Source: an uncultured virus (IMG/VR IMGVR_UViG_3300044733_004146) (Duplodnaviria > Heunggongvirae > Uroviricota > Caudoviricetes). From it: a stretch of DNA of 64,000 nucleotides. The position numbers were made by a program, and so were the translations under genes. The DNA lies in the IMG/VR virus record IMGVR_UViG_3300044733_004146, one strand, 5' to 3'. This document shows positions 5,019 through 63,457 of the stretch, piece after piece. A model generated the notes under the pieces. That model made no database searches, was not told the origin of the DNA, and saw only the letters and a program-made list of their open reading frames with translations. Each line of letters starts with the position of its first letter. The stretch's first letter is position 1.

Positions 5019-5120
5019 TTAAGCCACGCAATAGCGATGGCCGTGCAATGAGGCCAACTGAGCCTTGCGAAGACGGGCAGCTTTTTCAAGCTGCTGCTTC
5101 ACGAGCAACAGAGTGTTCAT
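5019..5120 (-). CDS. 33-aa basic peptide downstream of a glutamine riboswitch (MNTLLLVKQQLEKAARLRKAQLASLHGHRYCVA)
   Basis: Translated by hand. GGAGAG SD-like sequence upstream, flanked by the riboswitch and a terminator. Confidence 0.75.
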   Translation of the reverse strand: MNTLLLVKQQLEKAARLRKAQLASLHGHRYCVA

Positions 5121-5134
5121 GGCGCTCTCCATGG

Positions 5135-5190
5135 TCCACCTCCCGTTCCGTAGGTGGGTGTCATGCGCCCCATGTGGGGTGAACGTAGAT
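5135..5190 (-). promoter_or_regulatory. Glutamine-II riboswitch (Downstream-peptide RNA motif)
   Basis: CUACGUUCA-CCCCACAUGGGG-CGCA...CCACCU-ACGGAACGGG-AGGUGG gives a CGUUC/GAACG P1, a P2 hairpin and a CCACCU/AGGUGG pseudoknot. TAAGCT -10 box at 5198-5193. Confidence 0.85.
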
Positions 5191-5204
5191 GCAGCTTAGC
5201 ACGA

Positions 5205-5278
5205 TACCCTCGGTGGGAGTCGAACCCACACTGGAGCGATTTTAAGTCGCTTGCCTCTGCCGGTTGGGCTACAAGGGC
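5205..5278 (-). tRNA. tRNA-Leu(UAA), short variable loop, CCA not encoded
   Basis: GCCCTTG/CGAGGGT acceptor stem, AGCGA-CTTAAAA-TCGCT anticodon arm, GTGGG-TTCGACT-CCCAC T arm, discriminator A. Confidence 0.92.
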
Positions 5279-41501: not shown

Positions 41502-42356
41502 ATGCCCACCACTCTTGCGGAGCTTTGGAGTGCCTTCTTGGAAGAGCGCTCCATTTCTCTATGTCCAACCAGCTTGACTTCCGACTACAGGCAAGTAACA
41601 AAATGGTTAAAGCGTTGCCCAATTCAAGACTTAAATGAAGCACGCAAAATCATGATTTGGGTGTTGGGAGAAAAGCCGGTGCTTTCTTCTAGACGCGTCG
41701 CAATGTATGCAAAAACAATGTTTCGCTGGGCAGCACAAGAAGACGTGGGTTACTTGGACAAGAATCCTCTTGCAAGCTTTAAAATGCCTAAAGCTCCGCA
41801 AAGAAACGAGGAAATTGTTGTAATTCCGCGAGATGAAGTGGGATTAGTCCTTGCAGCACTAGAAGCCAAGCAAACTTATAAAAATGTTAACTGGACTTGG
41901 TATACAGAATTTATGCTTCAAACCGCCATGCGAACTGGTGAAGTAAGAGCATTGCGATGGGACGATATCAAGGACAACAAGATTCTTGTGCATCAAAACT
42001 GGACCCTTACGCATGGATTAAAAGATAGTACTAAAACAAACAAAAAGCGATGGGTGCCATTGAACAATAAATGTCAAGAAATTATGGCGCAACTTTCTCA
42101 AGACAATGAATATATTTTTCCATGGGATCGCTTGGCGTTTCAGAGTTATTTTCGTAAAAAACTGCAGCCATTACACCAAGCAGAGTTAATTAGTCATGCT
42201 TATCGCCCTTATGATTGCAGGCACACCGCGATTAGCCGCTGGATTGAGGCGGGCATTCCAGTGCCACAGGTGGCAAACTGGGCTGGTAATACCAGTGAAA
42301 TTATTTTTAAGCATTATTGCAATACCACCAAGGAGTACGAAATGCCGGAGCTGTAA
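41502..42356 (+). CDS. Tyrosine recombinase/integrase
   Basis: TAMRTGE (R), TKTNK (K), PYDCRHT, WAGN and KHY (Y). Confidence 0.9.
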   Translation: MPTTLAELWSAFLEERSISLCPTSLTSDYRQVTKWLKRCPIQDLNEARKIMIWVLGEKPVLSSRRVAMYAKTMFRWAAQEDVGYLDKNPLASFKMPKAPQRNEEIVVIPRDEVGLVLAALEAKQTYKNVNWTWYTEFMLQTAMRTGEVRALRWDDIKDNKILVHQNWTLTHGLKDSTKTNKKRWVPLNNKCQEIMAQLSQDNEYIFPWDRLAFQSYFRKKLQPLHQAELISHAYRPYDCRHTAISRWIEAGIPVPQVANWAGNTSEIIFKHYCNTTKEYEMPEL

Positions 42357-62167: not shown

Positions 62168-62321
62168 AGACTACGAAAACGATCCGCTGCTGGATTGGGA
62201 CTATGAGCAACGGAAACAACGTCCGCTTACGTTGCAACAATTGGAAGATCGTCTTGCTTTTTGGCGAGAGCGACAAAACACTCTTTACCTGGAGCTTTAC
62301 CGTGCCGCCACTTCCATATAG
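62139..62321 (+). CDS. Hypothetical protein (start uncertain)
   Basis: Overlapping small ORF in the operon. Confidence 0.5.
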   Translation: MEARIMIIPEDYENDPLLDWDYEQRKQRPLTLQQLEDRLAFWRERQNTLYLELYRAATSI

Positions 62322-62559
62322 TTATAAGCTGCAACGATTCAATGGCAAAAGTAAAACGTGGGAAGATATCAATATTGTTGATGGCATTCCAGACCTTCGC
62401 GAAACAATCGAAGCTTTAGAAGCCACTGTTGACATGCAGCGCATCAAAATGCTGCATATGGCCAATGCCGTTGCCAATCAACTGCCGGACAGGGATAAAT
62501 TCTTTGCTGACTTTTTAGGCCCTGACGAAAATTCTCCATCCGAGCCTCCCCTTCCATAG
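62302..62559 (+). CDS. Hypothetical protein (GTG start)
   Basis: YKLQRFNG...WED. GGAG upstream, terminator downstream. Confidence 0.55.
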   Translation: MPPLPYSYKLQRFNGKSKTWEDINIVDGIPDLRETIEALEATVDMQRIKMLHMANAVANQLPDRDKFFADFLGPDENSPSEPPLP

Positions 62560-62712
62560 TCAATCCTCTAAAGCCCCATCAGGGGCTTTTTCTTTTGTCC
62601 ATGAATGGTCGCCAGGGATGGGCTCAGTGCCATATTCCCAATCGTCATATTCCTCCCCGTTCCTCAGCCATCGCGCTAAACGCTCACAATCTTGCTCAGG
62701 CGACAGTTTCAT
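62560..62712 (-). CDS. 50-aa hypothetical protein (YDDWEYGTEPIPG)
   Basis: ATG at 62712 with a TAGACT box upstream. The longer ORF-track version runs through a terminator. Confidence 0.6.
   Translation of the reverse strand: MKLSPEQDCERLARWLRNGEEYDDWEYGTEPIPGDHSWTKEKAPDGALED
62570..62592. terminator. Terminator at the convergence point
   Basis: AAAGCCCC-ATCA-GGGGCTTT-TT. Confidence 0.65.
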
Positions 62713-62760
62713 GCCCCGGCCAGCAATGTATAGGCCGAGTCTAGCTGGCTTCGTATAGGC

Positions 62761-62988
62761 AAAAAGAAAGGAGGGCTTTCGCCCTCCTTTCCCTTTGTGT
62801 GGCCTCCGATACGACGGCTCCCATCGAGCCCTCCTCCAGAAGATCAGCAATGGGGACAATGCGCCTCGCAGGGAACCATGATAGACCCTTGGCCGAACCA
62901 TACAGTCTGGCCCGCATTGTCAGTCGCGCTTGTCCTTACGGCCCGCCTTGCGACGGGAGCAGCGATTAAGCCGCCTAAGCCGACCACT
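62761..62988 (-). ncRNA. Candidate free-standing structured ncRNA (~228 nt)
   Basis: TATAGT -10 (62999-62994), multiple stems with GCAA/GUAA/GCGA tetraloops, and an 11-bp terminator with GAAA loop and U-run (62791-62761). Confidence 0.65.
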
Positions 62989-63106
62989 TCCTTACTATAC
63001 ACCCCCATTGGCCGTTTGGTTCACAGGGAGCTTGACAAGCGTGTCACAATAGTCAGAACGCCTGCAGCGATGCTTGCGTTCCTCGCTAGCCACTCTCTCT
63101 GTTTTG

Positions 63107-63457
63107 ATGCTACGTTTCATTTTCCCCCTTCTGCTGCTTGGCAGCGCTCCTGTCCAAGCGGCGGCTTTGTCGTGCGGACAAGCCAGTCACTATGGCATTG
63201 GCGATGGCTATCACGGCCAAACCACTGCCAGCGGCGCTCGCTTCAATGCCTACGGTCTCACTGCTGCCCACCCCTCGCTTCCTATGGGCACCAAAGTGCA
63301 AGTGAAGAATCGTGACAATGGCAAGACCGTAGTGGTGACAATTAATGATCGCGGCCCATACTCTGGCGGACGCATCCTTGATTTGTCCTACGGAAGCTTC
63401 TCTCGCATTGCTTCCCCCGGCCAGGGCGTTGCCCGCATCTGCCTTTCTCGCCTTTAA
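63107..63457 (+). CDS. RlpA-like double-psi beta-barrel lytic transglycosylase with signal peptide
   Basis: ASHYG...TASG..F....LTAAH..LPMGT...INDRGPY..GRILDLS. Confidence 0.9.
   Translation: MLRFIFPLLLLGSAPVQAAALSCGQASHYGIGDGYHGQTTASGARFNAYGLTAAHPSLPMGTKVQVKNRDNGKTVVVTINDRGPYSGGRILDLSYGSFSRIASPGQGVARICLSRL

Follow-up and report, generated by a model that had tools for sequence, protein, structure and literature searches.

A structured RNA with a covarying multi-helix core in phages related to Synechococcus phage S-CBS4

The window (the whole 64,000-nt stretch of viral DNA analyzed here) encodes on its minus strand a structured RNA of approximately 190–230 bases, with a closed core of ~190 nt (62987..62799) formed by ten helices. 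We consider it almost certain that this RNA is real and novel. In the sequence comparisons it was encountered solely in S-CBS4-like cyanosiphoviruses, to which the family is specific, including the cultured phage S-CBS4. The features of the locus, in the order in which the minus strand is read, are as follows.

62994..63001, minus strand: promoter, consisting of a TG and the −10 box TATAGT (62999-62994), ending 6 nt before the first P1 base
62982..62987, minus strand: 5′ strand of P1 (GUGGUC), pairing with 62799-62804 and closing the entire core
62928..62980, minus strand: P2 domain, in which P2 (62980-62977/62931-62928) encloses P2a, P2b and P2c
62975-62970/62963-62958, minus strand: hairpin P2a, with the loop UUAAUC; 3 of 6 pairs covary
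62957-62952/62947-62942, minus strand: hairpin P2b (CCCGUC-GCAA-GGCGGG), with the loop GCAA; 2 of 6 pairs covary
62941-62934, minus strand: P2c (CC-GUAA-GG), the stem of which never varies
62923..62927, minus strand: 5′ strand of P3 (GCGAC), pairing with 62811-62815 and enclosing P4 and P5
62855..62921, minus strand: P4 domain, in which the 9-bp P4 (GACAAUGCG/CGCAUUGUC, 62921-62913/62863-62855) encloses P4a and P4b
62912-62891, minus strand: P4a, covarying in 3 of 4 plus 2 of 3 pairs
62889-62886/62873-62870, minus strand: P4b; 3 of 4 pairs covary
62869-62864, minus strand: conserved P4 junction strand GCGAGG (family consensus GNGAG)
62820..62854, minus strand: variable hairpin P5 (CCCAUUG/CGAUGGG, 62854-62848/62826-62820); 4 of 4 modelled pairs covary, 91.5% paired
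62811..62815, minus strand: 3′ strand of P3 (GUCGU), directly 5′ of the invariant AUCGGA
62805..62810, minus strand: single strand AUCGGA in the P1/P2/P3 three-way junction, invariant in all 38 distinct rows of alignment A5
62799..62804, minus strand: 3′ strand of P1 (GGCCAC), just before the terminator, placed by the comparative alignment
62761..62793, minus strand: GC-rich intrinsic terminator (stem 62791-62781/62776-62766, GAAA loop 62780-62777, U-tract 62765-62761)
62728..62760, minus strand: spacer with two GCCUAUAC copies (62760-62753 and 62735-62728), conserved in sequence in most lineages
62560..62712, minus strand: gene for a 50-aa protein with the core motif YDDWEYGTEPIPGD, starting 49 bases past the U-tract
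62570..62589, plus strand: terminator of the convergent plus-strand gene 62203-62559, placed by a terminator scan and the sequence and overlapping the last codons of the small ORF

The window represents a tailed-phage genome, with genes for a portal, a major capsid protein, a tape-measure protein, ThyX, a ribonucleotide reductase fragment, an integrase and an AAA_25/DnaB-like helicase. The sole match of this helicase among 50,697 cultured-phage records was found in Synechococcus phage S-CBS4 (66.4% identity, 99% coverage). The 40-kb IMG/VR record G001 carries a locus identical to that of the window, and the stretch was also present in DNA runs labelled as lake water. A tyrosine-integrase gene (41502-42356; Phage_integrase, E = 1.6e-16) suggests that the phage has temperate potential. 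Between 59 and 64 kb, the RNA and the small ORF form the sole minus-strand unit amid plus-strand genes, with terminators on both sides, an arrangement that is moron-like.

A second structured locus was identified at the other end of the window, where a tRNA-Leu(taa) gene (5278..5205, minus strand) is directly followed by a Glutamine-II riboswitch aptamer (5188..5135; 43.4 bits versus a gathering score of 33). On the 3′ side of the aptamer there is a 37-aa ORF (5132..5019, minus strand), assigned to no Pfam family, and then a terminator-like hairpin; the unit 5019-5278 is predicted to be a phage-borne glutamine sensor controlling a tiny peptide. The small ORF adjacent to the novel RNA (62712..62560) was considered as the “downstream peptide” of this riboswitch and rejected, since the unrelated 37-aa ORF follows the latter.

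Folding analysis of the minus strand of region 63000..62755 (246 nt) gave a minimum free energy of −111.6 kcal/mol (z = −4.38), with none of 200 shuffles as good, compared to −81.7 kcal/mol (z = −1.33; 16 of 200 shuffles as good) for its plus-strand complement. The fold is thus beyond chance and specific to the minus strand, as the sequence-only reading of this DNA had maintained. The individual features named in that reading (TATAGT, P2b, P2c, the 9-bp P4, CCCAUUG/CGAUGGG, two AUGGUUC copies and the 11-bp GAAA-capped terminator with UUUUU) were all found in place on the minus strand.

A scan with exact 19-mers retrieved only copies 95–100% identical to the window, which were too close for covariation analysis. 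Among copies of ~95% identity, the RNA differs at 8 of 239 positions, versus ~9–25% in the flanking genes, and the 8 substitutions include changes of G-U to G-C, A-U to G-U and GCAA to GUAA. In the 50-aa ORF, changes among the 95%-identical copies are mostly third-position synonymous.

A tblastn search with the 50-aa protein revealed 589 relatives among viral and 345 among metagenome contigs; 80 loci from each set were analyzed further. Model R1, built from eight sequences, matched 15 of the 80 viral loci and 18 of the 80 from metagenomes (14 of these complete, 4 truncated at a contig end). Within these 160 loci, the R1-positive ones were exactly those with the short form of the ORF (50–72 aa), and the loci with a 112-aa form (L025-L089, L111-L169) gave no match. 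When the core-only model R2 was applied to 99 other small-protein loci and the window, the window was the sole match. A scan with an RNA motif, independent of the protein, identified 37 viral loci, of which R1 confirmed 36, and in each of these the small ORF again comes directly after the RNA. The same motif, run over one genome per species from 185,579 prokaryote species, gave 9 pattern matches, none of which is a member of the family; a diverged homologue lacking the pattern would escape it.

In the S-CBS4 genome, the RNA was located between gp093 and gp092 (NC_016766.1 64491-64728, minus strand; 120.3 bits, E = 2e-38), gp093 being a lipoprotein precursor homologous to the product of the DPBB gene of the window. 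A DNA search of cultured phages with the RNA itself yielded only terminator-sized, irrelevant matches in Achromobacter and Erwinia phages. In all 8 loci examined for synteny, a DPBB gene lies divergently upstream of the RNA and the small ORF lies downstream, and therefore all members of the RNA family belong to one phage lineage. The S-CBS4 gene gp086, annotated “Rnase E” (L216 4576-5162, NC_016766.1), is situated six genes away from the RNA locus.

The first model-based alignment, comprising 22 distinct sequences, had 99.8% of its cells paired and compensatory changes in 30 of 56 pairs (0 of 500 shuffles as good), versus ~50% paired cells and 6–9 compensatory pairs in slid controls. A homologue search with a covariation check, which had been proposed as a test of the sequence-only reading, gave the anticipated outcome: in the core-only alignment made with R2, 37 distinct homologues keep the fold, pairing 97.1% of cells and showing compensatory change in 37 of the 53 pairs (a result matched by none of 500 shuffles), versus 38–53% and 10–14 pairs in slid controls. 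Because the structure guided this alignment and its sequences share ancestry, the figures lean towards the structure; with all copies from one syntenic phage lineage, inherited changes also enter the covariation counts. Given the slid controls and the many types of pair seen at single positions, there is nevertheless little doubt about the fold.

Helix P1 is paired in 99.5% of cells, with 4 of its 6 pairs compensatory and pair types such as CG 20/UA 14/GC 2, AU 23/GC 14 and CG 28/UA 9; the innermost pair changes from C-G to U-A among homologues. Covariation was also observed in 3 of the 4 pairs of P2 and 8 of the 9 pairs of P4 (99.1% paired). The loop of P2c is GUAA, GUGA or GCAA across all rows shown, and that of P2b is of the GNRA or UUCG/CUUG type.

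The long-range helix P3, aligned by anchoring its strands, is paired in 189 of 190 cells over the first five positions, with 25 distinct strand combinations and as many as 6 types of pair at one position. The observed count of 140 paired cells out of 150 compares with a mean of 85.8 in shuffles, none of which reached it in 2000 trials. A natural U to C change at 62811 converts a G-U pair of P3 to G-C. The figure of only 81.1% for P3 in the model-fitted alignment A7 results from a one-base register problem.

A hairpin corresponding to P5 was found at, or within a few bases after, the end of P4 in 27 of 33 distinct segments folded alone, with stems unrelated in sequence and length. In the other six (L011, which is the sequence of the window itself, L016, L091, L199, L205 and L106) the minimum-energy fold of the lone segment pairs otherwise. 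The invariant or near-invariant unpaired positions comprise AUCGGA (62810-62805), GNGAG (62869-62864), the G between P1 and P2, a part of the P2a loop that contains UUAA, and the GNRA loop of P2c. A scan for extra pairings and pseudoknots by pairwise column statistics over the alignment gave a signal swamped by lineage effects and yielded no usable pairing.

These data retain most helices of the three-domain anatomy drawn in the sequence-only reading and revise its details. The GUCG/CGAC closure of domain 1 is not a conserved pairing, and its place is taken by P1 (GUGGUC/GGCCAC) and the long-range P3 (GCGAC/GUCGU), the two helices in which the comparative structure also departs from the fold computed for the single sequence. 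The supposed GCGA hairpin loop proved to be part of the unpaired junction strand GNGAG, 62869-62864, and hairpin P2a (62975-62970/62963-62958) had been missed.

The promoter, of the extended −10 type, and the terminator assigned to the RNA in the sequence-only reading are both conserved. All 31 distinct upstream sequences contain the motif TAnnnT at a distance of 6–9 nt from P1, and all have a TG upstream of it (as TGnTAnnnT in 24, and adjacent to the box in 7 window-type sequences). The −10 hexamers of homologues include TATAGT, TATGCT, TACAGT, TACGAT, TATGAT and TACTAT, and transcription is predicted to start at ~62988-62986. A generic sigma-70 scan gave no promoter site on the minus strand because no −35 element fits.

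Terminator hairpins of −15 to −23 kcal/mol with a U-tract occur in 15 of 15 lineages tested. In the 22-sequence alignment, the 12 terminator pairs are 100% paired and 5 are compensatory. In the window, the flanking A and U runs can extend the stem from 11 to 17 bp, and the terminator scan also lists this hairpin (62791-62766) on the plus strand.

The spacer between the RNA and the small ORF varies in length (~22–80 nt) and has no consensus secondary structure (alifold energy 0.0). Two extra GC-rich hairpins between the RNA terminator and the small ORF are present in the spacers of L019 (~1925-1975) and L176 only. No conserved TAnnnT promoter was found in the spacer, the only candidate box being a TATGCT in L186. 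The direct repeat GCCTATAC (62760-62753 and 62735-62728, minus strand) is conserved as sequence and not as RNA structure, and does not fit TAnnnT; it may be a binding site for a protein or RNA.

The RNA had been described as free-standing, which was not upheld: a gene for a protein of 50–67 aa follows every copy found on the same strand, beginning in the window (62712..62560) 49 bases past the U-tract. The small ORF was recognized by its motif in 34 of the 35 loci listed, and the 35th, that of S-CBS4, carries the annotated gp092. The 50-aa protein belongs to no Pfam or PHROG family, and its best scores in the ESM Atlas (0.83–0.84) are below the meaningful level, with one cluster mostly cyanobacterial. 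In cultured phages, tblastn matched 86 records, all of them Synechococcus phages or cyanophages, and gp092 of S-CBS4 was the sole near-full-length match.

The motif (D/E)YDDWEYGTEPIPGD..W is common to the small protein and a highly conserved 112-aa protein encoded in hundreds of viral and metagenome contigs, and also occurs in hypothetical proteins of the T4-like Synechococcus phages S-RIM8, S-RIM2 and S-RIM50. The final codons (K-A-P-D-G-A) of the convergent small ORF contain the plus-strand terminator hairpin at 62570-62589, so that the conserved C-terminal peptide and the terminator constrain each other.

When words were sampled from a 701-nt stretch with the RNA at its centre, six metatranscriptomic runs contained 16–23% of them. 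In each of the four runs examined (from 4 studies, one run comprising only 2.66 million letters) a single contig of 155–181 nt was obtained, extending from 62798, 62799, 62804 or 62824 to 62974-62980. The four contigs span the core only, from P1 to P1, with no loose ends there, and three of them stop at 62798-62804, where P1 ends, short of the terminator stem. None of the RNA-library contigs covers the terminator or the DPBB gene, and the small ORF is represented only by a 36-base chimeric piece (X17), a gap that does not count as evidence against transcription. Contigs cannot show the strand, ends or level of an RNA, and strain variants at 62797/62798 and 62975 could alone break them where they stop. 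From these data there is good reason to conclude that community RNA contains this RNA well in excess of its neighbours, and the extents of the contigs give only a weak hint of its ends.

Comparison with Rfam 15 agrees with the earlier suggestion of a novel phage noncoding RNA, as neither the RNA of the window nor its 10 divergent homologues reached the gathering score of any family. Over the whole window, only a tRNA and the Glutamine-II riboswitch, both near 5.2 kb, scored above gathering, and region 62500-63200 gave 13 matches at E<=10, all below it. The best of these sub-threshold matches, PrrB/RsmZ (RF00166; 24.5 bits versus a gathering score of 44), lies largely on the terminator and one hairpin. 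The 10 divergent homologue loci gave only two terminator-sized matches to ctRNA_p42d (26.5–26.7 bits versus 50). No description of an RNA of S-CBS4-like phages was found in titles or abstracts by a literature search.

Orphan structured RNAs identified in genomes and metagenomes include IMES, raiA and ROOL/GOLLD. The RNA of the window shares with such RNAs, and with the IMG/VR candidates reported in PMC10690425, that it was found by covariation, is phage-borne and occurs in community RNA, but it has no sequence or structure match to any Rfam 15 family. In that study, 10,006 candidates for structured RNAs were predicted from the viruses of IMG/VR (PMC10690425). The sequence of the RNA had no occurrence in six of its supplementary files, and the RNA may be present, unnamed, among the 10,006 candidates (PMC10690425).

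With regard to function, a separate, abundant and stable RNA is favoured over a leader, an antisense-type regulator and a ribozyme, and the chances that it is a separate, trans-acting molecule are about even. It would then be an independent product, synthesized abundantly up to a terminator that acts constitutively, and the gene for the 50–67 aa protein would be a separate cistron within a small minus-strand module. Like a free-standing small RNA gene, it has its own promoter (31 of 31 upstream sequences) and its own intrinsic terminator. Such an RNA would act via its three-dimensional fold, the invariant junctions binding a protein or small ligand, and neither by long base-pairing nor as a sponge with repeated motifs. 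A protein sponge had been proposed from the repeated AUGGUUC, but in the largest lineage a sequence of the CAUUCUCC type replaces the second copy, and L019, L183, L022 and S-CBS4 deviate in both loops. The CsrA/RsmA-sequestering RNAs PrrB/RsmZ likewise consist of several hairpins followed by a terminator; the RNA of the window lacks their repeated conserved GGA loops, its host group is cyanobacteria, and its only invariant GGA lies in the junction strand AUCGGA, so that repeated loop-exposed motifs, as in a sponge, are not found. A scaffold or binding role exerted via the invariant junctions is possible.

Since the small ORF lies directly 3′ of the RNA on the same strand and the spacer has no conserved promoter, the ORF may depend on read-through, as in the layout of a cis-acting leader, and since all copies belong to one syntenic lineage, this adjacency cannot separate a trans-acting RNA from a leader. 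In the latter case, which we regard as appreciably less probable, a riboswitch-like or protein-responsive aptamer would let the terminator set transcription into the small ORF, and the abundant short RNA would be the terminated leader. The order promoter-aptamer-terminator-ORF is kept in every copy, P1 closes 5–9 nt before the terminator, and the junction bases are invariant; no convincing independent promoter was found for the small ORF. Riboswitch leaders as a class share with this locus a promoter-proximal, P1-closed fold, multi-way junctions with invariant unpaired bases, variable peripheral hairpins, and an intrinsic terminator after the fold, followed by a co-oriented ORF; the core of the RNA is a conserved, covarying, aptamer-like fold upstream of such a gene, although in copies that are all of one syntenic lineage. 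The protein family is, moreover, widespread without the RNA (the 112-aa form, hundreds of contigs and T4-like cyanophages, with 0 matches to R1 or R2), which is the usual pattern for a regulatory add-on.

However, the RNA has no match to an Rfam riboswitch and no conserved pairing that would exclude the terminator: in an energy-based scan of 15 lineages, which is not proof of absence, the best partners of either terminator strand were at inconsistent alignment positions, differing between lineages. The 3′ strand of P1 and the 5′ strand of the terminator are both purine-rich and unable to pair. The terminator is unusually strong, long and stable (11–17 bp), and with strong hairpins and no consistent alternative partner it looks like a gene-end terminator rather than a switch. 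The length of the spacer is also free, with hairpins inserted in two lineages and no consensus structure, and no ligand can be suggested for a leader because the small ORF matches no family of known function. As a reading that cuts across both of these, the core might be a ligand-binding RNA of a new class, either a riboswitch for the cyanophage-specific small protein or an abundant free aptamer soaking up a host metabolite or signalling nucleotide in the course of infection, with the invariant AUCGGA and GNGAG junctions forming the pocket; this we consider rather improbable.

Stable structured phage RNAs with own or early promoters include c4 of phage P1, CI of phage P4, the pRNA of phi29 and put of HK022, and the c4 and CI RNAs are located upstream of the genes they control. 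There is no homology between these and the present RNA; c4, CI and put are smaller, and pRNA belongs to another phage type and process. An upstream antisense-type regulator resembling c4 or CI, which would control the small ORF through pairing of the P4a apical loop with the GCUAUACA box in that ORF's 5′ leader, is unlikely. The loop-target complementarity in the family is partial and lineage-limited. Loop and box 2 are complementary over 9 nt in three lineages (L018, L101 and L098), over 8 nt in L024, and over 7 nt in the window; the 8–9 nt matches were equalled by 6–14 of 200 spacer shuffles, and an A/G difference in the loop keeps an A-U or G-U pair with the U of the box. The match of the window type was, however, no better than shuffles (56 of 200), it is lost in L016 through an uncompensated U to C change in the loop, and it is absent or at most 5–6 nt long in L108, L102, L183 and L022 (S-CBS4 was left out of the scoring). 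Where they match, both partners are near-invariant, and thus true covariation is lacking.

A catalytic or self-processing RNA, whose action would yield the P1-to-P1 core of the RNA libraries, is very unlikely. The complex fold with its GNRA loops and invariant junctions, and the end of three of the four RNA contigs at the P1 boundary (62798-62804), are compatible with a ribozyme, but no Rfam 15 ribozyme family was matched, no cleavage-site signature was identified, and the contigs, which stop at positions of strain variants, cannot reveal where the RNA itself ends. It is scarcely tenable that there is no functional RNA at all and that the region represents a chance fold, a coding region, or a mere bidirectional terminator with a GC-rich spacer. 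An open frame (62901..62560) does cross part of the RNA region in the window; against this stand the compensatory changes in 37 of 53 pairs, the better conservation of the RNA than of the neighbouring genes, and the confinement of the RNA-library contigs to the RNA. Protein-coding conservation, named in the sequence-only reading as a finding that would count against the RNA, was not encountered: homologues differ in length by numbers not divisible by three, and the overlapping frame does not stay open in L021, L022 and L024.

To our knowledge, few RNAs with a fold of this complexity (ten helices, GNRA loops and invariant junctions) are still unassigned, and those described in the past tended to reveal new biochemistry. 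The RNA belongs to viruses of picocyanobacteria, which are major primary producers, and the fact that several studies of freshwater metatranscriptomes contain it points to heavy production in nature. It also provides a handle on a widespread, uncharacterised family of small cyanophage proteins defined by the YDDWEYGTEPIPGD motif. Since the RNA is encoded in a cultured phage-host pair, S-CBS4 and Synechococcus CB0101, its role is directly testable.
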